From positions 320,001 to 384,000 of IMG/VR virus record IMGVR_UViG_3300037484_000435: 64,000 nucleotides of DNA; one strand, given 5' to 3'. The translations under genes were made by a program, and so were the position numbers. This document shows, piece after piece, positions 1 through 16,566 of this stretch. This stretch comes from a virus. Taxonomy: Duplodnaviria > Caudoviricetes. The notes under the pieces are model-generated. The model saw nothing but the letters and a program-made list of their open reading frames with translations, was not told the origin of the DNA and searched no databases. Positions within the stretch are counted from its first letter, which is position 1. Each line of letters begins with the position of its first letter.

Positions 1-3000
1 CCAGGAACAGTATCCATAGCAGTTCCCCAGACCTTTTTAGTAACATCCGTTGCATAAGGAAAAGCGGACTCATCCCATTTTCTAAAGGTAGGTCGTGCAT
101 AACCTTCAAAATCTTTCATACCAGACCAAGCTGCTGAACCAGCGGCATTTACACCACGCTTAGCCAAATTCGTAACACTATCAGGAATATATTCAGAAAT
201 TTTCCCCACTAAGTCTTTTGTAGCTGACCAACCTTCACCTAAAAGAGCTGTACCCGACTTAACTATTTCTGAAGATCCTATAGTCTTTATAGCTCCCACA
301 AGAGCTTCAACAATAGGAGCAATCATTGGGTAACCAGTATAAGCTGTAGCCCCAGCCATGGTTCCTGCGCCCAAACCACCAAGGCCCAGCATTGTCATCG
401 AAGCAGGTAACGCATATGTTGCTGCAAGAGCTGCTCCGCCACCAATCAGGGCCGCTTTACCTAGCCCACCAGCCATGCGTCTCCATAAAGGCTTCTTTTC
501 ATCAGCAGGAGCATTTAAACGAGGTTCATCGAGGTTTTCCTCTCCTTCTGCGGGCGTATTGCTACGGTAAGTTTTTTCAGATGGAGTAAATAATCCCCCT
601 ATCCCACCAGTTACCGCACCCCATAGCGGGGCCGCTTTTATAACACTGGAACGAGAATCTAGAAAACTTTGTGGTAATAGATTGCTACCTTCAAGCAAAC
701 TTGACGCACCATACCACCCAGCACCAGCAATTGAAGACACAGCAGCACCAGAAAGAGCACCTTTTAACATTTTCCATATAGGTCTTTCTTCATTAGTAGG
801 ATTCAACTGTGGAGTTCTTGACACCCCCGCTGATGTTAATCCAGAAAGGGCCCCAACCGCTGCTCCCGCCCCCGTAGCTAAAGGTATGTGTTGGAGACCT
901 AGTCCATAAGCCATACTTCCCACTATAGGGGCAACAGCTGCCCCTATCAAAGCCGATCTCCCTGCACTTTCTAAAAACCCAGTAGGTTCCTGACGTAAAG
1001 GAGCGTAAGCTTGGGTACCAGGTGTTAATCCTCTATTCATAGCAATGTTTGCTAGTCTATCGGCGGGCTTGTTTTCCTCACGAGGAACATAAGAGAAAGA
1101 CACATTGTCAAATTGTGCTGCTAGCACATCCGCCTGAGCCTTAAGTTCTTTTATCTGCTCATTCTTCACCTTGAACTCATTTCTCATCTGTCCTACCATA
1201 ACTTCAGAGTCTGATCTTACTTTTATGTTTTGAGCGGAATTCTTAAGAGCCTCCTGTAAACCCATAATGAGGCCTTGGTACTCAGCAGCCATAGAAGTCA
1301 TTTCCCCAAGATATTTATTGACTTCTGCAATAGTCTGTCCCTTAGGATTTAATAGGACAGCACCAGCACCAGAAGGTCCCGGATTACCACGGGACCCAGC
1401 ATCAGTATATAGTGTATAAGGTTGTTGTGCAGGGGAATAATTCTGTAGATTTTTTCGCATAAAGGAAAGTTCTTCTTGTGGGGATGTCCCGATGGCCTCT
1501 CTTCCGGCTTTTTCTGCTACTAGCTCTTGTACCTTTGCGAGTTCATCCAAAACTTCTTGATCCTCATCAGTACGGAGACCTCCAGCTAGAGCCTCTTCTA
1601 GGGCATTTGCTGGCTCTTCCTCCCCCCTATCTCCGTATTTTTGCATATAATAATTCTGTATTTTCTTTGTATCTATACCAGGAAACTCTTTTCCAGACAT
1701 GATATCCTGCGCGATAGTAGGAGCGGAATAATCTATTACAGCATGCCCTTTTTCATGTTGCATTACGTTCATAAAAGCACGCATCTCTGCTCTATTTGTA
1801 GGGGAGAATAAACGGATATTCCCATCTTGGTAACGGCCTTCCCCTGCACCAAGCGTATCGTCTATCTCAACGTTAGGACTAAAACCATAAAACTGTTTAG
1901 CCCTTTCAGGATCCCTTTCCTCCATTGGCCTTACTTTGGAAACTAGCCACTGTCCTTTTTTAGTATCTTCGCCCTTCGGCTCGTAATTAAGAATATTGTA
2001 AGTACCATCAACCAAACCTTTAACGCCTTCCAACCTTACTGTGACATACCCTTCTTTTACACTTTCCAAAGTAGCCTTTCCTGTATCATAAGTTGCCATA
2101 TGACCAGCTCCATAAAAACCTTTGGGAATATCATATTCTCCTTTCTGGTAATAATCTATTGCGTGGTGTGCTGTAGGACCAATTGCTAATCTAGGCTTTC
2201 CTTTTTCAGTAGGCATAAACTCTGGTACCGCCCATGACTGAAGCTGACCACCAACCTCAATTCTCATATCATGGTGTGGCCCTGCCCTAAAGGCATCGTG
2301 TTTATGAACTACAAATCGGCCCACATCCCCTTCTTTGGCTTCCCCAGGAAACATAAATCCTGCCTCTTTAGAAATAGGCACTGCCTCTGGGTACTTAGGA
2401 GCTTGTCTCCTTGTATTTAGAACTAGAACTGGATCGTAAGGTAACTCAGGCATTCCTTTACCAAATATGCCTTTGCGTAATTCCTCTTGTGTAGCTACAA
2501 CTGCATCTTTGGCAAATGAAGGTATTGGCTCTACACTGGGAGCCTGGAGTAGGAACTTAGTTCCTTTCTTAAATTCTCCTGCCCGCTCAGGGGGCTGATA
2601 GAATTTATCATCTAAACCTTTAAGGTATTCCTCCATACGCTTCTTAGAGGTTTCTACAACGGGCCAATCCTCTGGATAGAGACCTTCCTGCTTTTGGACA
2701 AGAGATGGCGAAAAATTCTTGTAAGAGTCCTGATCTATCTCTTCTTCAGTTTGATATGCGGGAGAATATGATCGCTTTCCTTCTAACACCCTCGCAAAGC
2801 GTTCTTCTATTCTCTGTTCCGCGGATTCTTGTGTTCTCCAAGGATAACGGTTTTCCTCATTAACCAGATAATCTTTGGTTTTGAGTTTAAGCATTCTTGG
2901 GAAACCTGTTTTTGGATCAATTTCACCCAAGGCTTTAGCAACTACACCCTCCTCTATGCCCTTAAATTGATCTTGTTGAGTATACACCTTTTGTGCTAGG

Positions 3001-6000
3001 TCTTTATCAACCTTACCACGATAAAGTTCATCTACAGTCTTCAACTTCAAGTCATCTGCTAGTTTTTTGAACTCGTCTACAGGGAGAGGTTTATTAGCAA
3101 CCTTGGCATCAAACCAAGCTAACTGGTCTTTCTTTCCTCCCCATTCACCAAACAAATCTACTCGATGTCCTATATCTTTTGAGTATTTCTTAAGTTCAGG
3201 AGCCAGCCCTTCTTCCATCTGTTCAATAAAAGGTTTGTATAGTTTATTAGCAGTATCGGGGTCTAATACTTTATTGCGTGTAGCATAGCCTATCTCGGTA
3301 TTTCCCCAACGTAGAGGAACAGCACTCATTTTGATTTGATGACCATGACTCTTATACTGTGCCGATCCCTCAACGTCTTGTTCTAAGAATTTTGGGTCTT
3401 CAAAACCTGTTTTAATATGGGGGTAATCGGCTGGACTAAACCCACGAACAGCACGCCTGATGTTTTCAGGTGCTTTTTCTCCAAAAGCTTCTCCAGGTGT
3501 AAATGGGGGTCCACCAAAAGGCCCTCCAGGAGATGGCATAGTAGTGGATAATCCACCCCTAACGGACTTCTCTTCTATTGCTTTAAGAAACTCATTTCTA
3601 GATTTCTGGAATCTCATTGTATAAAAGTCTGGTGGTTCTATATCCAGTTCCTTCAGAATATTCTCCATTCTCTTCTTGAATACCATATTAATATAGCGAG
3701 TGTAGCCACGATTCTCACCATATATTCCTTCAGCATAAAGGGCTTCCAGAGGCTTTTCAGATTCGCTAGTTATCTTCTTAGCCTTCTGATCAAAATGAAA
3801 TATACTCTGCCAATCTTGTGATGTTAAATCAAAGGCACTATTAAAAATCTTTTCAACATCATTTCTTACTTTATGTGTGGGTTTAGATAGAATCTCTTCA
3901 AGGTCAACACCCCCACCAGCACTTGGCCTAAAAGGCCACATGGACTGCTCAGCGGAACGTGGTATTGCGGTATTCACACGAGATTCAACTTGGCTTAGCC
4001 GTAGATCTTCCCAGTCCTTTGGTAATCCTGCTCCTATGTGTTCAAGAATCTGCCCCTGGCGTTCCTTTATCACATTATTTATAAAATGTGTAACTCCTCG
4101 GCTTCCTCCGTAAACGCCCTCATTGCGCAAGGAAGAAATGACATCCTGATATGGTGTATCCTCGGAAGGAGACTTCATCCCACGAAGAACTGGGTGTGCT
4201 TTGTACACGCTCTGCCAATCTTCTTGGCTCAGCGTTTCGGTATTTTCCTTTACCGCTTCCTTCCAACTTTCTTTAAATAACGGGGAGAATGATGCAACAA
4301 GGTCCTGAGTTTTACCCCTTCCTACAAGTCCCTCAGATATTTGTGCAGGAAGGTTGACACCAGTTAAACCAAAAAAGCCTGAGCGGGAAGCTCTCCTAAG
4401 TGGGCCAATACCAGAACCATAACCAGCTTCCCCCGCAATATAAGAAGCTGAGGCCTCTTCGACTGCTTGTTTTCTAAACGCCGGAATTTTACGCAAGGCT
4501 ACGGTAACCTCTATATTGCTCGAATCTTCCATAGAACCCAAACCCGCCCCTTCTAAGGCTTTCTTAACCATAGGGCCGTGCTCTCTGCTATATACTAGTT
4601 TTTCAATTAAACTATCTACTTCTTTTGCATGGCTTGACTTGGGATCAGAAACCCTGTCAATCACAGATCTTAAGTAATCAGCTTTAACTCCTTCCCCCAT
4701 ATCTATGTACTTCAGAGCAGTTCCTCTTCTGATAATCTCGTGGGCTCGATCCATAGCCTGTGTTAACTTGTCGTTGGCCGTAGACCTCTCATCTGGGTTA
4801 CGAGCAAGCATACGTTCACGGAGTGCATCTTCAAAGGCAGTTTTTATTCCACTATCAATATAAACTTGGCCAGTTTCTTTGTCATAAGAAAATTTTCGTC
4901 CCGCTTTAGATTGTTCTCCATAAATTCCTTCGGTCTGCTTCGAAAAAGTTTGCACCTGATTAAGTAAACCCTCCACCTGATACACTTCTTTATTCATTAT
5001 TTTCATCATCTGGTCATGTGCCACAACAAACTCTTCATAAGCTTTCATTGCGGGACTTTCAAAGGTGTATTTCTTCTGTTCAGTGGCCCCACCAAAAGTC
5101 CCTATCATTTCTGGAATTTCTATCCCTTTACCCTTTTTATTTCTTAATACATAGTCAAGCACTTCAGCTTGGGATAACGCAGGACCCCCAGGAGTGTATT
5201 CATTTTCTATATCTGATCGTTTAGCATAGGACCCTACGGCCATCGCGGCCCCACCGGAAGTTTTCATCTTATACATAGGTTGCAAACCCCTATATAAAGT
5301 AGAAGTACTTATTCCAGGTTGTATAATTTCCTCACTAATATTCCTATAATCCCCCTTCCTCACTTTCTCGATACCTTCTCCCATAGCAGCAATCCTAAAA
5401 CCTATTTCTTCTTTAGATAATTTCTTACCTGATGCTTTTCGCATCTCGTCTATTACCAGCTGTGTAATATCATCTTTTCCTACTAAAGCTTGGAAATCAC
5501 CTTCGTTAAATTTGAACTTGGTTTTGAACCCTAAAGTTTGGAGTGTTTCATCCTCATAACCTGGCTTCCCTGCAACGAATCTAGCAAGACCAAGAGATCC
5601 TTTTTTAGATAAGGTGGCGTCCCCCGCCAAACCTGTTGCGTAAAGTTCCTTTACATTAGCAACGGACATACGCATCATTTGGTCAAAAACATTTTCAAAC
5701 ATAGCACGGAAAGATGTTTTCTGTATAATATCTTCTATTAATTGCTCCCGATCTTTGCCCTTTGTGGATATACCGTATTCTTTAGATTCGCTCTGTAATT
5801 GTTCTAAAGTGAGAGGACGTAAAAACTTTAGTCTGTATTTACGCATTGATTCTTCTTGTTGTCCAAAAAGAGCTTCCTCACCAGCGCCTTGCATACCACC
5901 TTTATATTCTCCCCAGCCACCGTGACCGGCATCAAGAGCCGATGTTAGCTGATCCAAATTACCAGTGAAAAAAGCTTGTTGAACTTTGGGGCTTAAATCA

Positions 6001-9000
6001 GAACCAGCGGAACCATGCTTACCACCAATAACTCTCTGGATAGTATCCCTCAAGAATTCCCCTAAAAGAAGATTGTAGTTCTCATGCAACTTGGGGGTCA
6101 ACCCCAACCCCTTCGGGTCTGCCCCTCGATACAATAAACCTATACGGTTAAAGGCTTCATATCCTTGTCCCATATCAACTTTATGCACGAAATGTTTAAG
6201 GGAGTCTTCCGCAATTGTTGAGGGGTCTGTTTCATGTATATCTAGAAGATTTTTCTTGGCGGCTTTAGTAATCTCATCAACGTAGTTCATGCTCTTCCAG
6301 CCGGGAGACGACGCCGACAACCTATACTTCAAACTAGCAGGTAATTCCTCTGGAGATAGTTCAGCGCCCTTAACTCCCAACGAGACCGCAGATTCAGGAA
6401 CATTGCTCTTTTGAATATTTTCGTGCATAAACCTACGAGTTGTACCATAATCTTTTAGTTGCATCTCATGGATACGTTTGAGTTCTTCGTTAGCTTTCTG
6501 AGTAGTAGCGGCATGAATAGAAATCATATCACCATCAAAATCTAGCGTCATACTGGCTTCATGGTAAAGCGGTAATAAATCTTTTGAAACTTTATCGATT
6601 TTATCAATATCGTCTTGTAACTTACCGACCTTAGAGGTGAATTTACCTCCGCTAGTTTCAAGTTCATTTTCAATCTCTTTGACTTTCTTTTCCCTTAGTT
6701 CTTCCAAAGCGTCCCGAGTTTTATTCATTGTACTGATAACTGGGTAATCCCCGATAGGTAAACCAGGAACAGCAACAGACCCAGACAAATCTTTCATCAT
6801 ATCATCCACCGTTAATTTTAGAGAACGGTAACTAAATTCATCTGTAGTAGGTTGTCTATTAATAAGAGCATAAACATCATCAACCTTACTTTGTAAATCA
6901 GGGGTCGCCATACCTGCTTTTTGTAACTCCACCAAATCTTTTCTACCAATACGTACTTCCCCTTTACCGATCCATTGTGAGGGGTGTTCTTTTTTGAATT
7001 CTCCCACATTCTTGAGAGATTCAGACATTTGACCTATTAATTCCTCGGAGCCAGGTATTTCTTCTTTGAACTCTTCCAAACGCCCAATACCAGACCTAAT
7101 AGCCTCACTAGGGTCATAAGGCCTATGCTGTGCCGTCAAGTATAAGGCTGGTATCTTCTTCTTCATAATGGTATTTGAAATTAACCCACCTCTACCGTAA
7201 ACTGTGCCGGACAATTCTTCATAGTAAGCCTGCAAGTTTCTCATTATTTCGCCATATTGTAAATCCAGAGCAGTTTTTGATGTGAGACCAACATTTTGAC
7301 CCCTAGCATCAAGTTTTGGTTCATATAATCTGAAATCCTTCACAATCTTACTCAATAACTCTGGGCTAACCAATTCCTTTACAGCATAATTTGGATTACG
7401 CCCCTCAGATATATCTTCGGACACTGTTTTCCCTATCATATTTGTATCTTGGGTATAGATTACTGAACCAGAAAGGAGGTCCCTCAAAAGACGTGCTCTA
7501 AAGTTTAAATTAGACACATTATCTTCGAGCTGGGAGAAGTATTTTGTATAAGCTTCACTTACTGTTATGCCCTTCTTAAAATCTTCTTCCAAGGATTTAG
7601 CGTGCTCTTCTGGCAAGCGAGAATATAAAGTTGGAAACCATGTTTTTTCTGGATTTTGAGGATCAGCGATCAAAGAAGACTTTGCGGAAAATTGTGGCAT
7701 CGGCATGTTCCCAACTAACCCTAGAGCCTGTTCCTCTAATTTTCCTAGAAGTTCTTTTTTAAATGGTATATCACGAACAGGATGAATTCTATTATAGAAA
7801 TCCCCTAACATAGTATCTACAAAAGTTTTTTGTATTTCTTCCACTTGTGGGGTCTTAGCTGGTTTTTGTAAAAGAGAGTGTTTCCTTACAGACTCGATTA
7901 ATTCAGATAGGTAACGGGCATCCGGAGAAGGTAAGATTTCTCCAGTTTCTGAAGTTACATATTGCCTTGCTTTAATTTCTGGAATTTCAATTAATTTTTT
8001 AATTGGCACCACCTGCTTTCCCTCTTTAATTCCAGCCGCTACCTCTTCCTCACGAGCCTTGCTTACTTCTTCGGAAGGTTCTGGCAAACGAAGCACCATA
8101 GATGGCCCATACTTGAAGGCGTCAAAAATGGTTCGAGATAAATCTGCTACTGTAGCTTTTCGTTTTAGTGGCGCTATATACTTGTTGGAGCCTTCATCTA
8201 CCAAGTCTTCTGGAGTAATAACTGTTTTAGACCTATCGCGTTCTAACTCTTGGCTTCGTAATTTAGAGAATGACCTGAAAGCATTTAGGTAAGCCCCAGC
8301 TTCTCTGGCATCAGGAAAGGCCCTCATTGTAAATTCATGCTCTAACGCCCCGCCTTTGGGAAATAATTTTTTGAGACCAAACCAACCATGGGGATCAACA
8401 GTCATTTTAGATTCACCAGACTCTAATTCCTCTTCTCCTTTGGATAACCAAGTTTTTGGCTCTTTCATTATCATGACATGCATAGCCCCAGCTATTGCTT
8501 TCTCTAATTTACCTTCCTTATCCAGAATAAACTCTTCCCCGTATTTTCCTTTAAGCCCTAAAATATCTTTATATAACTCGGCTAACTTACGGGCCTCAAC
8601 CCCAGAAGCTGTATTACCTACTGCCACTTTTGCTAATGGGTCCCTTTTAATTTGGTCAATTAAAGTCTCATCAGGAAGAGCAACAGATCGTAGGTTACCA
8701 ATAATATTATTCGCAATCATTTCTGCTAAATTTCCACCAATCATGCGAGATTTTTTTCCTATTCCAGAAGCAGATACTTGCAAATCTACAGGAACATCTC
8801 TGGTCAAATCTCCACCAACAACTTCCTGATATGCTTTACGTACTTTACCCATATCAGCAGAAATAGTCTTCACCTGATCCGTAGCAGTCTTCGCACCCTT
8901 TAACACACTCGTCGGAGCTAGTCCTAATCCCAGCACTTTCGATACAAATTCACGCCTCTCGTCTACACTCGGGGCATCCTCTCCTGTGAGCTTGCCTGTC

Positions 9001-12000
9001 CCGTATTCGATCGGTGTAATCTTCAAATCCTTTAAATGCTCAGAAGACATCATAATAAGATTTCTTGTACCTTTTATCATTTCTAAGGCTTTCTTTGCTT
9101 CAGCGGGATCCACATCCTTCCTAGCCTTAATCATTTCAGATAAAAGTTCTTCAAATGTTTTTGGGACCTCTCTCAGCATACCAATATCAGAAAACTCTAA
9201 TCTTGGGGCCATGCCTTTCTTAGCCTTTTCCACAAGAGAAGATTCAGCTTCAGGACCCATTCTTCTGGCCACTGTTACAGCGACCCCCTTCATAACCTGT
9301 CCCGTTGATATCTTTCGTGTCTCATGGCCAAGGTAAGCATTGAGAAGCTCTACAATGTTTTCTTCCACTGGGCCTTTGGGTGATTGAGACCACCGTTTTA
9401 CTATATCTTTTACGAATGTCTGGTCCGCAAGCTCTTTGGATTGTATGGGTGCTCCAAAAATATCGTGCCCCACTTCCTCTAGATACTTTATTATACTCCC
9501 CTTTAACGCCTCTGGGGTAGATTTAAGTGATGGCACAACCATCTTCTTAAATTTAAAGGTGGCTAATTCCTGTAACCTCTTACCTATTTGGTATAAATCC
9601 TCGTACCCTGCAGAGACATCCTTTAACACAGTTGTTACATTCAAACCTGTTCCATAAGGCCCCCATTCTCCGCCCTTAATAAAGCCATGAGCTTTACGAG
9701 AACGAATAGCATTAAACTCTGGACCAGCTAGAGAATCCCAAGCAGCCCCAGTAGGACGAGCCGGATTAATAGAATAGCCAAAGGCCTCAGTTTCTCTGGG
9801 ATCGTAAGAAGCGAATGGTTGTAAACGTTTACTACGAAACATAGACTCCATGAAATGATCACCAAAATCTCTCTTGCCCGCTGCCGACGCTTCATTAAGA
9901 CCCACAGTTGCTAACTTCTCAATAGTGGGGCCCAACCTCCGTTGAGAAGCTTCGGTTTGCCGTAGAAATTCTTTCTGGACTAACTCTTCCATATCTAGAT
10001 TTCGTGTAACAATAAAACGTCGTAATGCTTGCAAATCAACAGGTACTCCGTAAGAACTTGGTCCCGCGTCTATACCAGGAATTTTTGGTTGAATAGTAGT
10101 AACTTTGGCCCTACCATACACTTCATGTTTTTGCATCGCCTCATGCTCTTCCGGAACCTTCTCTTTAATTGGGTCAAACACTTTCTTAAACCTTTGTGGC
10201 AGTAGCTCTTGAAAATATGATTCATTTCCTAGACGGCCAGCAGACGAAAGACTATTCCTAAGTTTCTGCAGTTCATTACTGTCAGTCTTAGAGTAAGTTG
10301 CGGCACGGTTTAAAAGGCTATAAAAATCTACAGGTCGATATGTAGAAAACTGCTCCAATGTACGTTGCCATGCTCTATTTTGGTAATCGGACGCCCCAAA
10401 TTTTTTAAGTTCCTGCTCTTTAGTCTTTTGTAATTCTGATTCTAATTTCTCAGTTGGGATACGGGAAACTGCCTCACCGCTCTTTAGAGATTCTTTTCGC
10501 AAATATTCTAAAACAGGATCAGGTAATAATTCATACCTAGCTCCTTTACCTACTAGTGGCACCATCTTAGGCCTAAACTCTTTTTCTAATTTATCAGGAA
10601 GTTTAACTTCTCCACTAATAACGCTTTCTTTTAGAAGTCGCTCCCTAGTAGATTGTATAGCCTCCCGAAGAGCACTCTCGTATTGTTCATTGAACTGTTG
10701 TCTTAATTCGTCGATTGCGGTTAATGACTTGGAAGCTCTAGGTCCTCTAGTGTCCTTTATAAATTTTGAAACAAGATCAAAAGAATTTTTTACACGTTGA
10801 ACTACTTCTTCAGAAGCTCCTTCCTGACCGATACCCACACCATGTTCCTCGTGAGGACGTGAGCGCACCCAGTAATCTTTGGTTAATCTAGATAGATCTC
10901 GAATCTGCCTAGGTATGTCTTTTGGTTCTTTTCGCAGCGTCTTTACTTGTTCCATTAACGGAGCTATATACTTATCTTCCAACACATTAGGGGCAGGACG
11001 GGTTTCCAAGTACTTACCCAAGGTAAGGTATTCTCCTCGCTCTGGATCCCTAATAATTAAAGCCCCTCTTGAGCTCTTATGCACTGACGGTATTTGTATA
11101 GTCTGTCTAGTAAGGCCCTCAATGCTTTTGTTTACTAATTCAATACGTTTAGTAGCTTCTTCTGCCCCTAACTTCGCCTTCAGTTGTTGATCAACCATAC
11201 TTAGTAAGTCTTTCTGGATCTCCCGTAATCTATCAATAGAGTAGGACATAATTGTTTCAGCCTTACGAGAAATTCCTTTGGATTCAATATACTGGTCTAT
11301 AGATTTTTGAATGTCCGGACCAACATCGGTTTTGACGGAAGAAGACAGTCCTTGAGCAGACATCAGGGATTGCAGTTGTTTAGCTAAAGCTTTCACATCA
11401 GTCAAACCATACTGTGCCCCACCAAACTCATTAAATGTAACACGTGGATCCCCCACATAACGACCACCTATCGGGGCACCAATTCCACGCCGTTTGCTCA
11501 TTGACTCAACATCGTGAAATTCTGGTCCAGCGGGCTCAAAAAATTGTGGTTTAGCAAAAGTAAACACCATACTTCTTTGGAATTGCTCAAAAGACCTGCG
11601 TGTAGGAATAGCCTCAACCCCAAGCTCTTTGTCAAGGTCCTCTTTAGCCTTTGTAATAGCATCCCGCATCTCAACAACTTGCTTAGCTAATTTATTACTG
11701 TGTAATTCTTTCTCTACTGCTGAAGTAATTTGAGCCAGATTACCTGTAGTAATCTCCTCAAGCTTTGATTTTAAAGCGTCAACCTGTTTTAGGGCTTCTT
11801 GGTGTGACTCATAGCCAACTTTAGACAACGCTGTATGTATTTCCTGATAAACATCGTCCATCTGGTGTCTAATACGAAGAGCCTCTTTACCCAGCTCTTC
11901 CTTAGGCAGAGCCTGTAATTTCTGTAATTTCAGTTCAAGTTCTCGTGTAAAAATGTTGGGTGCCGCGATTTCTTGCAAAGTTCTTTCAGGACGAACATTG

Positions 12001-12530
12001 ATCTTTTCACCAGAAAAAGTTTCAATTACGTTAGGGGCCTTTAGGCCTTTCACAAAATCCATATAATCTAAGAACATATCCCGCTGCTGGTCAAGGCTAC
12101 GCCGCATTCTATCCGTATGTTGTTGGCTGGAATGAAACTGGCGATCGAATTCAGTTTGCATTTCCTGCCGAGCCTGAGAATACTCTTGTTTCTTTGTGAA
12201 TTCCTTGGAAAAAGGCTTTACTGGGTCAAATTCTTTTTTGGCAGTTTGGGGAGTGATCGGCCCTGCGGCCCGAAGATCCTTATCTCGAAGCATTGCAATC
12301 TGCTCTTCAATAGCATTTAATTCTGTTTGTATGCGGGATCTGTATTCCGATAAAATGGAAGTATCGTGGGATTGGGCGTAAGATGATTTGGCATCCTTAA
12401 TATCTCTAATATTAAGAGTTTTTAAATCTTCACGTAACTTATCTACAAAACCTTTTATATTCTCATTAATAGAGTCAGATAGTTGTGCGTCAATGTTTAT
12501 TTTTATATTAAAAGTATAATCTTCAGCCAC
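1..12530 (-). CDS. Giant tape-measure-position polyprotein (>=4176 aa, 3' end outside window) carrying RNAP, ligase, phosphoesterase, peptidase and RNase H domains
   Basis: GTG start at 12530 (MAEDYTFNIKINIDAQLSDS...), with GAGGT about 12 nt upstream. I translated the frame by hand over most of its length and found no stop down to position 3. It lies directly downstream of the tail tube and chaperone genes. It is absent from the ORF track because no stop lies in the window. Confidence 0.9.
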   Translation of the reverse strand, partial: MAEDYTFNIKINIDAQLSDSINENIKGFVDKLREDLKTLNIRDIKDAKSSYAQSHDTSILSEYRSRIQTELNAIEEQIAMLRDKDLRAAGPITPQTAKKEFDPVKPFSKEFTKKQEYSQARQEMQTEFDRQFHSSQQHTDRMRRSLDQQRDMFLDYMDFVKGLKAPNVIETFSGEKINVRPERTLQEIAAPNIFTRELELKLQKLQALPKEELGKEALRIRHQMDDVYQEIHTALSKVGYESHQEALKQVDALKSKLEEITTGNLAQITSAVEKELHSNKLAKQVVEMRDAITKAKEDLDKELGVEAIPTRRSFEQFQRSMVFTFAKPQFFEPAGPEFHDVESMSKRRGIGAPIGGRYVGDPRVTFNEFGGAQYGLTDVKALAKQLQSLMSAQGLSSSVKTDVGPDIQKSIDQYIESKGISRKAETIMSYSIDRLREIQKDLLSMVDQQLKAKLGAEEATKRIELVNKSIEGLTRQTIQIPSVHKSSRGALIIRDPERGEYLTLGKYLETRPAPNVLEDKYIAPLMEQVKTLRKEPKDIPRQIRDLSRLTKDYWVRSRPHEEHGVGIGQEGASEEVVQRVKNSFDLVSKFIKDTRGPRASKSLTAIDELRQQFNEQYESALREAIQSTRERLLKESVISGEVKLPDKLEKEFRPKMVPLVGKGARYELLPDPVLEYLRKESLKSGEAVSRIPTEKLESELQKTKEQELKKFGASDYQNRAWQRTLEQFSTYRPVDFYSLLNRAATYSKTDSNELQKLRNSLSSAGRLGNESYFQELLPQRFKKVFDPIKEKVPEEHEAMQKHEVYGRAKVTTIQPKIPGIDAGPSSYGVPVDLQALRRFIVTRNLDMEELVQKEFLRQTEASQRRLGPTIEKLATVGLNEASAAGKRDFGDHFMESMFRSKRLQPFASYDPRETEAFGYSINPARPTGAAWDSLAGPEFNAIRSRKAHGFIKGGEWGPYGTGLNVTTVLKDVSAGYEDLYQIGKRLQELATFKFKKMVVPSLKSTPEALKGSIIKYLEEVGHDIFGAPIQSKELADQTFVKDIVKRWSQSPKGPVEENIVELLNAYLGHETRKISTGQVMKGVAVTVARRMGPEAESSLVEKAKKGMAPRLEFSDIGMLREVPKTFEELLSEMIKARKDVDPAEAKKALEMIKGTRNLIMMSSEHLKDLKITPIEYGTGKLTGEDAPSVDERREFVSKVLGLGLAPTSVLKGAKTATDQVKTISADMGKVRKAYQEVVGGDLTRDVPVDLQVSASGIGKKSRMIGGNLAEMIANNIIGNLRSVALPDETLIDQIKRDPLAKVAVGNTASGVEARKLAELYKDILGLKGKYGEEFILDKEGKLEKAIAGAMHVMIMKEPKTWLSKGEEELESGESKMTVDPHGWFGLKKLFPKGGALEHEFTMRAFPDAREAGAYLNAFRSFSKLRSQELERDRSKTVITPEDLVDEGSNKYIAPLKRKATVADLSRTIFDAFKYGPSMVLRLPEPSEEVSKAREEEVAAGIKEGKQVVPIKKLIEIPEIKARQYVTSETGEILPSPDARYLSELIESVRKHSLLQKPAKTPQVEEIQKTFVDTMLGDFYNRIHPVRDIPFKKELLGKLEEQALGLVGNMPMPQFSAKSSLIADPQNPEKTWFPTLYSRLPEEHAKSLEEDFKKGITVSEAYTKYFSQLEDNVSNLNFRARLLRDLLSGSVIYTQDTNMIGKTVSEDISEGRNPNYAVKELVSPELLSKIVKDFRLYEPKLDARGQNVGLTSKTALDLQYGEIMRNLQAYYEELSGTVYGRGGLISNTIMKKKIPALYLTAQHRPYDPSEAIRSGIGRLEEFKEEIPGSEELIGQMSESLKNVGEFKKEHPSQWIGKGEVRIGRKDLVELQKAGMATPDLQSKVDDVYALINRQPTTDEFSYRSLKLTVDDMMKDLSGSVAVPGLPIGDYPVISTMNKTRDALEELREKKVKEIENELETSGGKFTSKVGKLQDDIDKIDKVSKDLLPLYHEASMTLDFDGDMISIHAATTQKANEELKRIHEMQLKDYGTTRRFMHENIQKSNVPESAVSLGVKGAELSPEELPASLKYRLSASSPGWKSMNYVDEITKAAKKNLLDIHETDPSTIAEDSLKHFVHKVDMGQGYEAFNRIGLLYRGADPKGLGLTPKLHENYNLLLGEFLRDTIQRVIGGKHGSAGSDLSPKVQQAFFTGNLDQLTSALDAGHGGWGEYKGGMQGAGEEALFGQQEESMRKYRLKFLRPLTLEQLQSESKEYGISTKGKDREQLIEDIIQKTSFRAMFENVFDQMMRMSVANVKELYATGLAGDATLSKKGSLGLARFVAGKPGYEDETLQTLGFKTKFKFNEGDFQALVGKDDITQLVIDEMRKASGKKLSKEEIGFRIAAMGEGIEKVRKGDYRNISEEIIQPGISTSTLYRGLQPMYKMKTSGGAAMAVGSYAKRSDIENEYTPGGPALSQAEVLDYVLRNKKGKGIEIPEMIGTFGGATEQKKYTFESPAMKAYEEFVVAHDQMMKIMNKEVYQVEGLLNQVQTFSKQTEGIYGEQSKAGRKFSYDKETGQVYIDSGIKTAFEDALRERMLARNPDERSTANDKLTQAMDRAHEIIRRGTALKYIDMGEGVKADYLRSVIDRVSDPKSSHAKEVDSLIEKLVYSREHGPMVKKALEGAGLGSMEDSSNIEVTVALRKIPAFRKQAVEEASASYIAGEAGYGSGIGPLRRASRSGFFGLTGVNLPAQISEGLVGRGKTQDLVASFSPLFKESWKEAVKENTETLSQEDWQSVYKAHPVLRGMKSPSEDTPYQDVISSLRNEGVYGGSRGVTHFINNVIKERQGQILEHIGAGLPKDWEDLRLSQVESRVNTAIPRSAEQSMWPFRPSAGGGVDLEEILSKPTHKVRNDVEKIFNSAFDLTSQDWQSIFHFDQKAKKITSESEKPLEALYAEGIYGENRGYTRYINMVFKKRMENILKELDIEPPDFYTMRFQKSRNEFLKAIEEKSVRGGLSTTMPSPGGPFGGPPFTPGEAFGEKAPENIRRAVRGFSPADYPHIKTGFEDPKFLEQDVEGSAQYKSHGHQIKMSAVPLRWGNTEIGYATRNKVLDPDTANKLYKPFIEQMEEGLAPELKKYSKDIGHRVDLFGEWGGKKDQLAWFDAKVANKPLPVDEFKKLADDLKLKTVDELYRGKVDKDLAQKVYTQQDQFKGIEEGVVAKALGEIDPKTGFPRMLKLKTKDYLVNEENRYPWRTQESAEQRIEERFARVLEGKRSYSPAYQTEEEIDQDSYKNFSPSLVQKQEGLYPEDWPVVETSKKRMEEYLKGLDDKFYQPPERAGEFKKGTKFLLQAPSVEPIPSFAKDAVVATQEELRKGIFGKGMPELPYDPVLVLNTRRQAPKYPEAVPISKEAGFMFPGEAKEGDVGRFVVHKHDAFRAGPHHDMRIEVGGQLQSWAVPEFMPTEKGKPRLAIGPTAHHAIDYYQKGEYDIPKGFYGAGHMATYDTGKATLESVKEGYVTVRLEGVKGLVDGTYNILNYEPKGEDTKKGQWLVSKVRPMEERDPERAKQFYGFSPNVEIDDTLGAGEGRYQDGNIRLFSPTNRAEMRAFMNVMQHEKGHAVIDYSAPTIAQDIMSGKEFPGIDTKKIQNYYMQKYGDRGEEEPANALEEALAGGLRTDEDQEVLDELAKVQELVAEKAGREAIGTSPQEELSFMRKNLQNYSPAQQPYTLYTDAGSRGNPGPSGAGAVLLNPKGQTIAEVNKYLGEMTSMAAEYQGLIMGLQEALKNSAQNIKVRSDSEVMVGQMRNEFKVKNEQIKELKAQADVLAAQFDNVSFSYVPREENKPADRLANIAMNRGLTPGTQAYAPLRQEPTGFLESAGRSALIGAAVAPIVGSMAYGLGLQHIPLATGAGAAVGALSGLTSAGVSRTPQLNPTNEERPIWKMLKGALSGAAVSSIAGAGWYGASSLLEGSNLLPQSFLDSRSSVIKAAPLWGAVTGGIGGLFTPSEKTYRSNTPAEGEENLDEPRLNAPADEKKPLWRRMAGGLGKAALIGGGAALAATYALPASMTMLGLGGLGAGTMAGATAYTGYPMIAPIVEALVGAIKTIGSSEIVKSGTALLGEGWSATKDLVGKISEYIPDSVTNLAKRGVNAAGSAAWSGMKDFEGYARPTFRKWDESAFPYATDVTKKVWGTAMDTVP
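3..1000 (-). other. Gly/Ala-rich hydrophobic segments (putative membrane-inserting tape-measure region)
   Basis: In-frame translation includes SALIGAAVAPIVGSMAYGLG, LATGAGAAVGALSG, MLKGALSGAAVSSIAGAGWYG and AGGLGKAALIGGGAALAATYALPASMTMLGLGGLGAGTMAGA. Confidence 0.65.
1029..1421 (-). other. RNase HI domain (Rv2228c/archaeal-type) within giant ORF
   Basis: YTLYTDAGSRGNPGPSGAG (D at 1401-1403), AAEYQGLIMGL, VRSDSE, VPREENKPADRLAN. All four acidic catalytic residues are present. The usual TNN is TSM here. Confidence 0.88.
1575..1870 (-). other. Zincin-like metallopeptidase domain within giant ORF
   Basis: GEGRYQDGNIRLF...VMQHEKGHAVI (HExxH at 1743-1757), with a downstream EEALA (1584-1598) as the likely third zinc ligand. 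Confidence 0.72.
1935..2411 (-). other. LigD-type DNA/RNA 3'-phosphoesterase (PE) domain within giant ORF
   Basis: RFVVHKHDAFRAGPHHDMRIEVGGQLQSWAVPE...RLAI..TAHHAIDY...IPKGFYGAGHMATYDTG...QWLVSK follows the LigD PE consensus FVVQKH..RRLHYDFRLE.DGVLKSWAVPK..RLAV..EDH.LDY..IP.G.YGAG...WD.G..WLL.K. Confidence 0.88.
2870..3380 (-). other. ATP-dependent ligase adenylation domain, RNA ligase (Rnl2-like), within giant ORF
   Basis: Motif I QYKSHG (K at 3351-3353), Ia YATRNKVL, III LFGEWGG, IIIa WFDAKV, TVDELYRG, IV EEGVVAK, V MLKLKTKDY, in canonical order. No OB-fold is recognisable afterwards. Confidence 0.78.
5241..7319 (-). other. RNA polymerase beta'-like (catalytic DPBB) region within giant ORF
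   Basis: YGRGGLISNTIMKKKI (cf. KGKQGRFRQNLLGKRV), GEVRIG, YALINRQPT (6846-6860; cf. VLLNRAPT) and MTLDFDGDMISIHAATTQKANEEL (DFDGD at 6528-6542; cf. [24 protein letters not shown]). The end boundary is approximate. Confidence 0.9.
5721..5813 (-). other. SAP/Rho-N-like helix-extension-helix motif
   Basis: LTLEQLQSESKEYGISTKGKDREQLIEDIIQ matches the L..ELK...K..GI...G.K.ELI..I pattern. Confidence 0.5.
8283..9659 (-). other. RNA polymerase beta-like (second DPBB) region within giant ORF
   Basis: GLNVTTVLKDVSAGYEDLYQIGKRL (YED 9597-9605; cf. E. coli [26 protein letters not shown]), KISTGQVMKGV (K-x7-K at 9288-9314; cf. KMAGRHGNKGV), VPVDLQVSASGIGKKSRMIGGNLAE (8742-8792; cf. [22 protein letters not shown]). 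Confidence 0.85.
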
Positions 12531-12552
12531 TATTTAAATTAACCTCATGAAC

Positions 12553-13647
12553 TTATTCTTTGGTGAATTTTTTACTCTTTGAAATACCCTTAGACTTTTT
12601 AAAAGTAACGCCGTCTTGTCCTGGGTCATCTTTCAAAGAGATATCGGCAACATTCCCAGCTTTAGGATTTGCCCGATCATACTGCCTATCCAAGTATTCT
12701 GGATGCGACTGCATAATTAATCTGGTGCTCATCTTCTCCGCCGTAGAGCTACCATATTTTTTCTCGGCCCGCCTTTCTGACCTGTCTTTCGATCTTTCCT
12801 TATGCAAGTCTTCCATATACTCGTCTAGTGCTCCATCATCTTGGATGACCCAGTCATCTGGCTGGTCCTCTGGAAGCATTTCATAAATAGATTGATAATA
12901 CCCTGTCCACCATAATAAGTTCTTTTGGTCAGGTGTCAATTCTATAGACGATTTTGGAAATAAATGAAGATTACCTTTCTGTGCGACTAAATAGTCCAAC
13001 CGCCACAAATTACTTCGGGCGATATACCTGATTTCTTCTGTCGTATGTCCAACTAAATATCTTAGAAACTCAGACAGAAGTTTGTTTTTGAGCTCAACTT
13101 TCCTTTCTACCTCCTTGCAATAGGTTAGGTAATTGTCCCATAATAACTCATCCGTTTCGGGGTCAAAACAGCAAGCCCATAACATGTAGTCATATTTGGC
13201 TTGTCGTGCTCTCCGTTCAGCAGTATTTGACATCATTATCTCGCGTTTCTTCTCGGCTTGAAATAATTCTTCCTCTAACTTATTTATACTCTCCTGAATG
13301 TAAGGCTTATAAGTAACATCAATATCTACGTCTGACATTTTTCTTTTATTCATGTCAAGTAATTTATGAATAGTTTCAACTTTTTTATCATCCTTTTCAG
13401 TCCAAATTCCGCGCTCACGCATTAGTTTGTCCATTTCAGATTCATTCATAATGTTGTCTTTTTTGGCACGGAACATAACACGGCGTTCCTCTAAATTCGC
13501 AAGGAGGGTGGTGTGACGGGAAGGATAACGGAAAATAACAAAAATAGGGAAATCCTCAGAGAAAAGAGAAACCTCAACAAGTCTTTGAGAAAAACATATC
13601 TGTTCTATTGTTAGTTGTAACTCGTCAAGAGTCCAATCAATAGACAT
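12553..13647 (-). CDS. Tail assembly chaperone, GT-like (long paralogue)
   Basis: Immediately upstream of the tape-measure ORF. It shares SNTAERRARQAKYDYMLWACCFDPETDELLWDNY with the 15859-16566 protein. Probable ATG at 13647 (MSIDWTLDEL). Confidence 0.6.
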   Translation of the reverse strand: MSIDWTLDELQLTIEQICFSQRLVEVSLFSEDFPIFVIFRYPSRHTTLLANLEERRVMFRAKKDNIMNESEMDKLMRERGIWTEKDDKKVETIHKLLDMNKRKMSDVDIDVTYKPYIQESINKLEEELFQAEKKREIMMSNTAERRARQAKYDYMLWACCFDPETDELLWDNYLTYCKEVERKVELKNKLLSEFLRYLVGHTTEEIRYIARSNLWRLDYLVAQKGNLHLFPKSSIELTPDQKNLLWWTGYYQSIYEMLPEDQPDDWVIQDDGALDEYMEDLHKERSKDRSERRAEKKYGSSTAEKMSTRLIMQSHPEYLDRQYDRANPKAGNVADISLKDDPGQDGVTFKKSKGISKSKKFTKE

Positions 13648-14542
13648 GCAAATCACCATACTTTATAATTCTATAACTACTCAATAGATCCCATTTTCTT
13701 GATAACCCAAACTGAACACTATTTCGACAGTCAATTAAAAATTTCTCGGCACGATTACCCCCTAGAGTATAATAACTATAAGTCCCAAAGTCTTTTACCT
13801 GACTAATCCGAGGAGCACCATAAGTGGAATCACAAAAATTCTTAATCCAAGCCAACAGATATCTGGTTCCACAAAAGCCTGTTACTAACGTGGGTATATT
13901 GTGTTTTTTATTCCAACCAAGGGAGACCCACCCATCACCATCAAGAAGTCCTTTAAGATAGGGCAGTATCAAATCATTATCTAATAACTTAGGGGGACGA
14001 AGTGTATAGGTCTTTTGCGGAGTAATAGAAAAATTGTTATTTAAATCTATATACCACCCCTTAATCCCAGAAATACGTATTTCAGCAAAATAGGAATTTT
14101 TACTAAAACCCCTACTTTTTCGAGAATGTATTTCCCCAGAAAAATGAGTCTCTGCTTTAAAAGATCCCAAAACAGAAGCATCCTTCTCAGCCAAACCTAT
14201 AGTTAATTGGTATCTATTTGCAGATAAGTTACCATCGGCAGCAATAAAGCCTGCCCAGTAAGAGTTGTGTGTATTCGGTTCGGAAAAGTAATCCAAATCA
14301 ACGGTTGTTCTGACTCGTCCTAAAGACAAGGTGTGGGAGGTATCACCTTTTATACCCAACCTCAGAAGTCTATTACTAACCGCACCTTTGCTCTTACCAA
14401 GTTGTTGTGAAATTTCTTTACGATTAACCTTTTCATAAAGAGATAATAGTAGCCTATCTTCTTCGGGAGTCCAATGTTTATACCCCTTAGTATTCTGAGG
14501 ATTGCGTGATTGGAGTTCATCTAAGGACCATTCTACTGCCAT
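13637..14542 (-). CDS. Free-standing LAGLIDADG homing endonuclease with one Myb-like W repeat
   Basis: SYWAGFIAADG and YLKGLLDGDG motifs; WTPEEDRLL repeat; RBS GGAG. Confidence 0.85.
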   Translation of the reverse strand: MAVEWSLDELQSRNPQNTKGYKHWTPEEDRLLLSLYEKVNRKEISQQLGKSKGAVSNRLLRLGIKGDTSHTLSLGRVRTTVDLDYFSEPNTHNSYWAGFIAADGNLSANRYQLTIGLAEKDASVLGSFKAETHFSGEIHSRKSRGFSKNSYFAEIRISGIKGWYIDLNNNFSITPQKTYTLRPPKLLDNDLILPYLKGLLDGDGWVSLGWNKKHNIPTLVTGFCGTRYLLAWIKNFCDSTYGAPRISQVKDFGTYSYYTLGGNRAEKFLIDCRNSVQFGLSRKWDLLSSYRIIKYGDLHVY

Positions 14543-14555
14543 CTATTTCTCCAAT

Positions 14556-14591
14556 AAAAAAGGACCTACTAACAGACGTTAGTAAGTCCTT
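14556..14591 (-). terminator. Intrinsic terminator-like hairpin
   Basis: Minus strand AAGGACTTACTAAC-GTCT-GTTAGTAGGTCCTT followed by a T run. Confidence 0.65.
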
Positions 14592-14605
14592 AAATTTAAA
14601 TATCG

Positions 14606-15748
14606 TTAAGCAGGGATACCTACTTGTCTTTCATATTCTTTTATCTTGCCCCATTTACGAGCAAGACGTGTTGGGGTTGGGACTTTTTGTAACTCTTTGA
14701 GGATACGGTAAGCCCTCTTTCCACCTACTTTATAAGTAAAAGCCCTTGAACCTTTTATAGGATGGACTTTAGCATTTATCCCATACATAGAAGGACAAAT
14801 TTTGTCAAATATTTCCTTCGCCCACTCAAGTAAATTTTGAGTCCCTGTGATGTTAATAATAGGATAAATATGGCCCCACTTATCGGGCTTACTAGGAAGA
14901 ATAATAGAACCGTCTCCATCAATAAGACCCACCATAAAGGCCAAACTATTTTCATAGTTAAGCTTGGTCGGTGGTTCTAATACGAGCGTTTTATTCTGTA
15001 CAATGTTAAAGTTGTTCTTTAGGTCCTGCACCATCTGTTGTGCAGAGGAAAACTCTAGAAAACTCATTGGTGTCTTACCTTTTACACTAGTTGTTAACCT
15101 AGTACGAATGTCACCAGTAAACCTAGACAAACTTGCAAAAGAAGTAAGAACCAGACTATCCTTCAAATGTAGAGAAATACGCACAGTGGCACGTTCTTCA
15201 TCAACAGACCCATCTGCCGCAATAAAGCCCGCCCAGTAAGAATTACAAACATTTGGTTCCTTAAAAAATTCTCTATTGTAATCATAACGTCTACGGTATG
15301 AAGACGGGTCTTTCTTCAAACCCAACCCACGGGCATGGCTTGTAATTGTCCGATAGTCTTTGTCTGGTATCAAATCTCTAAGCTCTGATACGGGTTTTTT
15401 TAAATAATTACTAATTAATATCTGCTCTTCACCCTCAGACCACCGAGTACGTTTTTCTAAACCAAGGGTTAAGATTTTTTTCTTAATCGCTGTTTTGGAA
15501 CGAGCAGAACAGAGACCTAGAGAGACTATCTCGTCCACTGTAAGATATTTATAATTTTCTATTAGGGAAGCAATATCTTCCTGAGACCATTCGGACTTAA
15601 TGTAGCCCCGCAACCCCAGTTGTTCTGCTTTTTTGTGAATTGATGCTTTCTTACGTAACGGTAGAAGTTTTTCCATATCTATTGCTGGTATCCTTGAATA
15701 GTTAATCATCATAATTTCAATTTCTTGTGGTGTCCATTTATTTGCCAT
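14606..15748 (-). CDS. LAGLIDADG homing endonuclease with three Myb-like repeats
   Basis: WTPQEI, WSQEDI and WSEGEE repeats; SYWAGFIAADG and FMVGLIDGDG. Confidence 0.85.
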   Translation of the reverse strand: MANKWTPQEIEIMMINYSRIPAIDMEKLLPLRKKASIHKKAEQLGLRGYIKSEWSQEDIASLIENYKYLTVDEIVSLGLCSARSKTAIKKKILTLGLEKRTRWSEGEEQILISNYLKKPVSELRDLIPDKDYRTITSHARGLGLKKDPSSYRRRYDYNREFFKEPNVCNSYWAGFIAADGSVDEERATVRISLHLKDSLVLTSFASLSRFTGDIRTRLTTSVKGKTPMSFLEFSSAQQMVQDLKNNFNIVQNKTLVLEPPTKLNYENSLAFMVGLIDGDGSIILPSKPDKWGHIYPIINITGTQNLLEWAKEIFDKICPSMYGINAKVHPIKGSRAFTYKVGGKRAYRILKELQKVPTPTRLARKWGKIKEYERQVGIPA

Positions 15749-15858
15749 TATTTCTCCTAGAAAGAATAGTTAAGGGATGCTCATTGAATGAAACACCCCT
15801 TTGCTGTATTAAGACACCTATTTAGAAGTTAGGTTCCCAGAAATAAAAATATGTTTAA

Positions 15859-16566
15859 TTATTTCTTTTTAGAATTTTTTACTTCTTTTTCTTCAACTTT
15901 TGCTTTAGGTTTTGCTTCTTCTATTTCCTTTGTACTTTCGGCTTCTTCTATCTCTTTGCGAGCAAGTGCCTCAGGAGTAGTCTCAAGAAAATTTTCTGCC
16001 AGACCCTGAAGTGCCAACATTACGGAGTAGCGTGAGCGCATTGCCAATGTGGGGTTGGAAGTAGTTTTATATTCGTCATAAGACTCCCAAACCTTGTCAC
16101 CATTTGAGTCTTTGACCATTGCAGAGGTAAGGTATTCTATTCTAGCATCCTCTGCCAATTGTTCTACGCTGTTAGACATAGGGCTAGAAGCTCTTTGGTT
16201 CCACCTAAAGAGTCTGTTTCTCACGTCTTCTACCTTCTCTGCACACACTTTCTTTTCATCAAGAGTCTTAGCACTATTAAGTTCCGCAATACCTTCGTCT
16301 AACTCCTTAATAAGAGCCACACGTTTTTCCTCGTACTTCTTACCAATGATATCCCTTTCTTCCAGAATATCCTGCATCTGAGCCATGGTAGTAACACCAG
16401 CCAAAAGTGCCTCATTGTAAGTCTTGCTATAGAACCAATCTGCCTGACGTACTTCGTCAATGCCAGCATTGTCAATAAAATACTTCTCTCCGTCGTGAAT
16501 AAACGTTCTTTTGTCCTCAAAGATATCCTGAAGAGTTTGTTCATCCTTTTTAGTTTTATCAGCCAT
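15859..16566 (-). CDS. Tail assembly chaperone, G-like (short paralogue)
   Basis: Acidic helical protein downstream of the tail tube gene. SNSVEQLAEDARIEYLTSAMVKDSNGDKVWESY aligns with the 12553 protein. Confidence 0.6.
   Translation of the reverse strand: MADKTKKDEQTLQDIFEDKRTFIHDGEKYFIDNAGIDEVRQADWFYSKTYNEALLAGVTTMAQMQDILEERDIIGKKYEEKRVALIKELDEGIAELNSAKTLDEKKVCAEKVEDVRNRLFRWNQRASSPMSNSVEQLAEDARIEYLTSAMVKDSNGDKVWESYDEYKTTSNPTLAMRSRYSVMLALQGLAENFLETTPEALARKEIEEAESTKEIEEAKPKAKVEEKEVKNSKKK

Follow-up and report, generated by a model that had tools for sequence, protein, structure and literature searches.

An Rnl2-like ligase and a LigD-type phosphoesterase within a predicted giant tape-measure protein of a large phage

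A cassette combining a ligase with a phosphoesterase was identified within a giant phage protein encoded in the window, i.e., the whole analyzed stretch of 64,000 nucleotides (nt), representing positions 320001-384000 of the 545,322-bp virus record IMGVR_UViG_3300037484_000435 (Caudoviricetes). The carrier corresponds to a stop-free minus-strand frame of 14,711 amino acids (aa) in the whole genome, with its first 4,176 aa covering window positions 3..12530. From N- to C-terminus, the cassette consists of an Rnl2-like ligase domain, a predicted ASCH/PUA-like barrel, and a LigD-type 3'-phosphoesterase (PE), an order shared by no fewer than six further giant proteins from metagenomes. As a tentative explanation, to which we assign a probability of roughly 0.4, this cassette would be a virion-delivered module trimming and sealing RNA-ended strands, most likely at the entry site and with RNA:DNA hybrids or ribo-patched nicks as its targets. 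Literature searches retrieved no description of this cassette, with a mention in the RNA-repair survey of Burroughs and Aravind 2016 being conceivable, and an architecture in which an Rnl2-type ligase is fused to a LigD PE was likewise not found described.

Domain composition of the cassette and its carrier

The nucleotidyltransferase domain of the ligase spans aa 3035-3220 (2871..3428, minus strand), as delineated by Pfam, motifs, and a structural model. The family PF09414 (RNA_ligase) matched aa 3060-3216 (nt 2883-3353) with 39.9 bits and an E-value of 6.4e-10 at a cut-off of 27, and reached 46.3 bits in the genome-frame search at the same cut-off. The original prediction, which was made from the sequence alone, had located the two enzyme domains at 1935-3380; the ligase is real but its start lies further upstream, where DYPHI is conserved (aa 3035-3039, nt 3414-3428). 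The predicted ligase motifs I to V, with a KxHG motif I of the Rnl2 type, are all present. Motif I reads K3060-S-H-G (nt 3342-3353; KLHG in one relative), followed by a motif Ia-like T-R3085-N-K, motif III (F-G-E3129), motif IIIa (F3140-D3141, inside WFDAK, aa 3139-3143), motif IV (E3194-G, then K3199), and motif V (K3215-L-K3217, nt 2880-2888), with ~160 aa between motif I and motif V. These motif residues are kept in the close relatives (alignment A3), and an alignment with two PF09414 ligases of the phage's own genome (alignment A5) shows no variation at the core K, G, G-E, E-G, and K positions.

Structural comparisons were performed with an AlphaFold2 (AF2) model built with an alignment of only ~7 relatives, as a single-sequence AF2 prediction of aa 3020-3540 was unusable (mean predicted local distance difference test, pLDDT, of 35). 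Model residues 28-191, which include a low-confidence region in the second half of the ligase, matched T4 Rnl2 best (2hvr, Z 10.5), followed by TbREL1 (8.8), Rnl3 (8.7), and Rnl5 (8.6), compared with Z 6.6 for the ligase domain of Mtu LigD and 5.7 for human Lig1 as representatives of DNA ligases. Phage and giant-virus RNA ligase 2 proteins ranked top in a search of the viral structure database BFVD, and the ESM-Atlas features of the ligase were closest to phage PF09414 clusters (score 0.96). Since the KxHG motif, the structural match, the viral-library match, and the language-model features agree, the catalytic domain as modeled is fairly termed "Rnl2-like". Searching the sequences of solved structures (phmmer on PDB) matched none of the solved ligases and returned only a spurious TPR match; NCBIfam has no model for the ligase or the middle domain. 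As predicted, no OB domain was detected in the ligase. The C-terminal helical domain T4_Rnl2_C was undetected after motif V by Pfam at E up to 10; the segment at this place (aa 3221-3286; 2673..2870, minus strand) starts with the conserved YLVNEENRYPW, continues as a helical and variable region, and showed low pLDDT, 38% identity to the related contig L011, no Pfam match, and no resemblance to the C-terminal domain of Rnl2. An assignment as mRNA-capping enzyme was rejected, considering the KxHG instead of a KxDG motif I, the missing OB domain, and the fact that all top fold matches are RNA ligases.

The PE barrel comprises aa 3403-3535 (1926..2324, minus strand). Here, PF13298 (LigD_N) matched aa 3409-3504 (nt 2019-2306) with 59.2 bits (E 5e-16, cut-off 31.1) and with 66.2 bits in the genome-frame search, the NCBIfam model LigD_PE_dom matched at E 3e-22, and phmmer retrieved the solved structures 3p43, 3n9b, and 3p4h at E 2e-15 to 1e-12. 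In the profile comparison, RNA_ligase and LigD_N thus both scored above cut-off and far above chance level, and PF09414 was the only ligase family detected. The modeled eight-strand barrel matched 3p43 with Z 18.9 (root-mean-square deviation, rmsd, 1.5), 3p4h with 18.5, and 3n9b with 16.3, at an rmsd range of 1.3-2.4. It aligns unambiguously with the PE of Pseudomonas LigD and with two archaeal PEs, and all six predicted equivalents of the Pseudomonas residues are recovered (HMMER alignment): H42 (H3411), H48 (H3419), D50 (D3421), R52 (R3423), H84 (H3456), and Y88 (Y3460). H3411, H3419, and D3421 are proposed Mn ligands, and R3423, H3456, and Y3460 are proposed to bind phosphate. All six are kept in the close relatives; the partial protein P0153 of a distant sister lineage has Phe at the Y88 position and Tyr next to it.

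Other positions of the PE deviate from its family. The position of E82 is occupied by A3454 throughout the clade, as had been noticed before, compared with Glu in 112 out of 147 other PE domains, and K66 is replaced by Glu in the window's protein and by Glu or Gln across the clade, compared with Lys or Arg in 142 of the 147. Across the clade, Q40 and D83 are changed to His and D15 to Gln. The counterparts of R14 and E21, only tentatively placed before, are R3375 (R, K, or Q in relatives) and E3382 (kept in relatives), found at the same spacing as in the LigD N-peptide consensus (KRDFxxTPEP, here RRQAPKYPEA). After R3375/Q3376, an N-peptide-like segment (aa 3377-3402; 2325..2402, minus strand) precedes the barrel. 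It carries the conserved stretch YPEAVPISKEAGFMFP, shares 69% identity with L011, and has a pLDDT <50 in the model, consistent with the disordered N-peptide of the Pseudomonas PE. In the Pseudomonas PE, the 3'-phosphatase step depends on R14, D15, E21, and E82, whereas 3'-ribonucleoside removal does not (PMC3300020, PMC3082917, PMC8656161); the role of Q40 is disputed between the phosphatase step (PMC3300020) and a reduced phosphodiesterase in Q40A (PMC8656161). With the six common catalytic residues kept and the phosphatase-specific E82 and D15 replaced in every relative, the earlier premise that the PE removes 3'-phosphates does not hold well for this enzyme; judged from these replacements, 3'-phosphate removal is most likely the activity that is weakened.

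The PE had been expected ~150 aa after the ligase. It is separated from the ligase not by a plain linker but by a 190-aa gap containing a conserved domain that we assign, on the basis of the AF2 model, as an ASCH/PUA-like beta-barrel (aa 3287-3376; 2403..2672, minus strand; model residues 258-347, pLDDT 86-96). Comparison by VIA-align yielded E. coli YqfB (9kyh) as best match (Z 10.0, rmsd 2.1, 84 aligned residues), besides PH0355 (9.0), 3iuw (8.8), and ZmASCH (7.7), with values of 10.0, 9.9, 9.0, and 8.8 for YqfB, PH0355, and 3iuw taken together, ASCH proteins covering a range of Z 7.5-10, and BFVD matches including ASCH and DUF3850 phage proteins. At the sequence level, neither a Pfam ASCH match nor a match to any other family at E up to 10 was obtained for the region in four relatives. 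The putative barrel shares the small beta-barrel fold of YqfB and ZmASCH by model comparison; unlike these proteins, with which it was compared by fold only, it has no Pfam ASCH sequence match and is internal, placed between two end-processing enzymes. The ASCH/PUA-like fold is typical of RNA-binding domains. Between the ligase and the PE barrel, the stretches YLVNEENRYPW, EGLYPE, LKGLDDKFY, and YPEAVPISKEAGFMFP are conserved (alignment A3).

The prediction that these enzymes lie inside a tape-measure-type protein was substantiated by a PhageMin_Tail match (PF10145, 92.8 bits, cut-off 33.2) at aa ~5701-5898 of the cassette's own stop-free frame, outside the window; by its sequence, the carrier is a tail tape-measure protein. 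The start of the giant frame is backed by a residue-1-to-residue-1 alignment with L011. Frame and motif scans of the first 4,176 aa revealed a DFDGD polymerase motif at aa 1997-2001, upstream of the cassette, and Pfam gave four domain matches in this part (RNA_ligase, LigD_N, RVT_3, and RNase_H). From N- to C-terminus, the block is ordered as RNA polymerase, cassette, zincin, RNase H, and membrane segments, the latter being Gly/Ala-rich hydrophobic segments that begin at aa ~3860, downstream of the enzymes. The type-1 RNase H (aa 3704-3829; 1044..1421, minus strand) lies ~170 aa downstream of the PE. It is supported by RVT_3 (89.5 bits), RNase_H (42.5 bits), PHROG 531, and NCBIfam RNase HI models (E 2e-38 to 4e-22), and D3710, E3751, D3774, and D3824 are kept. 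A zincin-like segment (1551..1853, minus strand) with the motif HEKGH (aa 3592-3596, nt 1743-1757) is placed between PE and RNase H and kept in L014, L011, L012, and L013; it has neither a Pfam match nor an NCBIfam model, and its motif suggests that it may be a processing protease. In total, the motif scan detected two HExxH motifs in the chain, at aa 3592 and aa 4371.

Conservation of the cassette and its relatives

The collinear order of polymerase end, repeats, ligase, middle domain, PE, zincin, and RNase H was found in the IMG/VR contigs L011/L015 and L014, the frameshifted ENA contig L012, and the JGI fragment L013. Identity to L011 amounts to 65% for the ligase, 67% for the ASCH-like barrel (82% to L014), and 66% for the PE, compared with 47% over the first 3,900 aa. 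As the cassette at 65-67% identity exceeds the chain average of 47%, it appears to be under purifying selection. Relatives at 47-72% identity show no changes in the catalytic residues. A distant sister lineage is represented by P0152 (6,667 aa) and P0153 (a partial NCBI protein of 2,886 aa, binned to candidate division GN15), in which the cassette is present in the same collinear order at 47-50% identity. P0153 and P0152 additionally carry a head domain of the PolyA_pol/CCA-adding type (PF01743; 76.8 and 83.5 bits, cut-off 23) immediately upstream of the ligase. In the window's protein, this head domain is missing and two unexplained repeats occupy its place, which indicates that the enzyme block is modular; a free copy of the PolyA_pol/CCA-adding domain is encoded at 480.9 kb of the phage genome.

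Beyond this clade, a tblastn search of the cassette against 50,697 GenBank phage records gave no match. A profile search for distant relatives of the ligase in a 5.8-billion-protein set returned same-clade fragments only, and in a search of 1.84 billion representatives the ligase was matched in close relatives only, with more than 2,800 matches for the PE. No PE was found among the top 50 viral structure matches in BFVD.

Possible functions of the cassette

Starting from the domain identities, the intact catalytic residues, the conservation, the domain order, and the tape-measure carrier described above, we infer the delivery of the cassette into the cell, its enzymatic activity, and its substrate. 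At infection, the giant protein would be expelled before the DNA or along with it, its N-terminal enzyme block being directed toward the cytoplasm. There, the presumably Mn-dependent PE site would trim a ribonucleotide-ended strand, mainly by 3'-ribonucleoside resection and with a weaker 3'-phosphatase activity, to give a clean 3'-OH. The ligase, adenylylated on K3060, would then seal the 3'-OH(RNA)/5'-PO4 nick in the duplex, with the ASCH-like barrel possibly helping to hold the nucleic acid. This action would take place in cis where the genome enters, on RNA that is paired with it; candidate substrates would be nicks in RNA:DNA hybrids, nicks or gaps patched with ribonucleotides, and the ends of primers or transcripts.

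The assumed delivery is derived from gp96 of the Thermus phage P23-45, a tape-measure protein of 5,002 aa with an N-terminal two-barrel virion RNA polymerase (PMC10770324). Both proteins are giant tape measures with an N-terminal-side DFDGD polymerase, a metallopeptidase, and membrane segments, whereas the window's 14,711-aa chain adds the ligase, the ASCH-like barrel, the PE, the zincin, the RNase H, and a DnaJ domain. The report on gp96 contains 0 mentions of ligase, phosphoesterase, or RNase H (PMC10770324).

Because each element of the block handles RNA or RNA 3' ends, a trimming-and-sealing unit for RNA-ended strands appears plausible. The polymerase synthesizes RNA, RNase H cleaves RNA in hybrids with DNA, and the sister lineage contributes a nucleotidyltransferase for RNA 3' ends. 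Tape-measure proteins are present in ~3-6 copies per virion, and this low number per cell, together with the RNA polymerase and RNase H neighbors, favors an action in cis at the entry site. Sealing by T4 Rnl2, DraRnl, and NgrRnl takes place at nicks in which RNA forms the 3'-OH strand, hybrids included (PMC3884662, PMC5397189), and a "ribo-patch" role in DNA repair has been proposed for nick-sealing RNA ligases (PMC5397189). Every characterized PE resects 3'-ribonucleotides on DNA primer-templates (PMC3082917). Among 65 long PE-containing proteins, 41 have a DNA-ligase domain and 25 a Prim-Pol domain, so that the known partners of the PE family are DNA-end repair enzymes. These substrates and partners of the PE, the RNase H neighbor, the missing kinase, the altered phosphatase residues, and the ribo-patch proposal all favor a target at the entry site, and the RNA:DNA-directed reading is rated above a bulk repair of ribotoxin-cut tRNA.

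In relation to its best structural matches T4 Rnl2 and REL1, the ligase has the KxHG motif I as well as motifs III, IIIa, IV, and V in common. Unlike them, it has a shorter nucleotidyltransferase domain with no direct sequence match to solved ligases, and the C-terminal helical domain of Rnl2 is undetected, the ASCH-like barrel following instead. DraRnl (Rnl5) of Deinococcus radiodurans is comparable in being an RNA ligase that seals nicks and was proposed to act on DNA nicks with 3'-side ribonucleotides (PMC5397189), but it is a free cellular protein with a KxDG motif and an N-terminal OB-like module, not fused to a PE or RNase H.

Several points weigh against the proposed trimming and sealing of DNA-paired RNA. 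The CCA/poly(A)-polymerase head of the sister lineage points to free RNA 3' ends (tRNA or mRNA). The specificities of the model enzymes fit imperfectly, with T4 Rnl2 and DraRnl requiring at least two 3'-ribonucleotides and the PE trimming to one. The zincin may free the enzymes from the membrane-anchored part, which weakens the argument for an action in cis. K66, tied to the diesterase step in the Pseudomonas PE, is replaced too, so that the retained activity is not confidently predictable. Finally, the ASCH-like fold depends on an AF2 model from ~7 relatives and has no sequence match.

In a more specific and distinctly unlikely version, the cassette would be the sealing arm of a virion-delivered ribo-patch machine that closes nicks or gaps in the huge incoming genome before phage expression. 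Such a machine would be LigD-like, with the two-barrel RNA polymerase standing in for Prim-Pol, the Rnl2-type ligase for the DNA ligase, and RNase H and PE shaping the RNA patch. Bacterial LigD (PE-LIG-POL) likewise has a PE of the same fold with the six essential residues and an ATP-dependent ligase in one chain, and its logic would be shared: the polymerase adds ribonucleotides, the PE trims them, and the ligase seals the 3'-ribo nick. In contrast to LigD, the ligase here is PF09414/Rnl2-like and not DNA_ligase_A_M, has no OB domain, and precedes the PE with the ASCH-like barrel in between; Pfam scans of the giant chain gave no Prim-Pol, Ku, sought as a test of an involvement in non-homologous end joining (NHEJ), is absent from the genome, and E82, Q40, D15, and K66 are replaced. 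If true, the ribo-patch machine would provide the first biological role for an Rnl2-family nick-sealing ligase in a phage.

T4 Rnl2 and its relatives seal RNA-3'-strand nicks in vitro, and whether they repair RNA, DNA, or both has been left open (PMC5397189). An Rnl2-type ligase chained to a 3'-ribonucleotide trimmer, an RNase H, and an RNA polymerase offers a concrete and testable set of substrates for this question. The delivery of an RNA polymerase by a tape-measure protein is a recent finding from one Thermus phage family, and our data suggest that the same route carries a conserved set for strand-end processing too. By implication, very large phages may resemble giant eukaryotic viruses in packing repair functions into their particles.

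The most serious competing explanation, possible yet unlikely in our judgment, corresponds to the function originally predicted, i.e., a pre-packaged kit with which host tRNA or mRNA, once cleaved by ribotoxins or nucleases of abortive infection, is rejoined ahead of phage gene expression. The PE would clean the 3' ends and the ligase would seal them, with the CCA-adding enzyme rebuilding tRNA 3' ends in the sister lineages. Both enzyme domains are complete and their surroundings are RNA-centered: the ligase is of the Rnl2 type, the barrel is of a kind typical of RNA-binding proteins, and the PolyA_pol/CCA head directly upstream of the ligase in P0152 and P0153 strengthens this rival, as does the extent to which the genome is equipped for RNA repair (RtcB, two additional RNA ligases, kinases, and a CCA enzyme). 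The ends produced by metal-dependent nucleases are 3'-OH/5'-P and need no kinase. In jumbo phages, tRNA repair commonly draws on a combination of ligases, end-healing enzymes, and nucleotidyltransferases (PMC7824862).

On the other hand, neither a 5'-kinase nor a 2',3'-cyclic phosphodiesterase was detected in the giant chain by Pfam and motif scans, and breaks of the PrrC/RloC type would therefore be unsealable. The sole Walker-A-like match, a potential kinase P-loop at aa 2734, was rejected, as it is not conserved in L014 or L011. The earlier analogy to T4 Pnk/Rnl1 is weakened at this point, since that pathway needs both of these activities. With the T4 Pnkp and Rnl1 pair, which counters PrrC, the cassette has in common that a phage encodes an end-healing enzyme and an RNA ligase; it differs by the missing 5'-kinase, by a PE barrel in place of a HAD phosphatase, by a nick-sealing Rnl2-like enzyme in place of Rnl1, and by being built into a structural protein where the T4 pair is expressed early. 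Furthermore, the changes E82 to A, D15 to Q, and Q40 to H affect residues linked to the 3'-phosphatase, with the role of Q40 reported inconsistently; no characterized PE works in RNA repair, its partners being NHEJ domains; and the RNase H neighbor would have no role in tRNA repair. The few tape-measure copies per infection are poorly suited to bulk tRNA pools, and the phage already encodes a free-standing, expressed RNA-repair set.

A repair or circularization of the incoming genome restricted to DNA ends or nicks, LigD-like as in NHEJ and with no RNA involved, is improbable. The PE family is known from NHEJ, mycobacteriophages use host LigD/Ku for circularization, and an unrelated phage contig, L022, encodes giant proteins with Topo IB plus DNA ligase and with Prim-Pol, 2H phosphoesterase, plus PE. 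Against this, the ligase is of the RNA type by Pfam, by its KxHG motif I, and by its fold (Z 10.5 vs 6.6/5.7 for the DNA ligases), no OB domain was detected in it, the genome lacks Ku and encodes a separate NAD-dependent LigA, and the RNA-centered neighbors would be left unexplained.

Equally improbable is that the enzymes are either cut off by the zincin during tail assembly to act late in the producer cell or are vestigial passengers of a length-determining protein: the two HExxH motifs and a 14,711-aa tape measure far exceeding the need of known tails would fit, but the catalytic residues are invariant, the cassette is conserved above the chain average, the hydrophobic segments come after the enzyme block, which is the arrangement anticipated if they insert into the membrane and leave the enzymes on the cytoplasmic side, and the tape-measure-fused RNA polymerase of P23-45 is a virion enzyme transcribing pre-early genes (PMC10770324).

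Further repair genes and neighboring features

Elsewhere in the genome, the NAD-dependent LigA, two more RNA ligases, RtcB, three AAA_33 kinases, and a CCA enzyme are encoded. Part of them forms a loose RNA-repair neighborhood of free-standing genes at 459-501 kb of the genome, outside the window, with an AAA_33 kinase at 459.7 kb, an Rnl2-type ligase with KIHGTN at 469 kb, RtcB at 474 kb, an enzyme of the CCA/poly(A)-polymerase family at 481 kb, and a second RNA ligase at 501 kb. The N-terminus of the 469-kb ligase carries a PHPNADNL stretch, which may resemble a tRNA-binding domain.

The giant proteins of contig L022 (Logan SRR24472968_41035, 3893-16775) are two in number and located shortly downstream of the terminase gene, from which two smaller genes separate them. 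The first (1,371 aa) contains Topoisomerase I (Topo IB) and a DNA/RNA ligase domain; in the second (P0110, 2,924 aa), a weak Prim-Pol is joined by a 2H/LigT phosphoesterase and a LigD PE. End-healing and sealing enzymes on large phage proteins may hence represent a wider theme. L022 also has a DnaJ gene beside its giant enzyme-bearing proteins. In the tape-measure polyprotein of the window, a DnaJ (J) domain (49.9 bits) is found at aa ~12582-12638, corresponding to ~294,600-294,800 of the genome and outside the window; it could recruit host Hsp70 for refolding of the expelled enzyme domains.

Within the giant chain, the models nearest to the RNase H are archaeal and actinobacterial type-1 RNase HI, namely the bifunctional RNase H/acid phosphatase and Halobacterium RNase HI. 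The repeats between polymerase and ligase are two tandem copies of ~130 aa (window 3560-4430, minus strand, aa ~2700-2990) with the pattern S..DW..I/V..(K/F)..P...G.YG..RG.T..IN...K.R, which are kept in L014 and L011 and lack any Pfam match. Two adjacent genes (window 13637-15748, minus strand) lie immediately upstream of the giant frame, and both match phrog_4645, a family of phage endonucleases. Their N-terminal parts are D5-like, and one of the two additionally shows an HNH match; the pair resembles mobile nuclease genes inserted beside the tape-measure gene.

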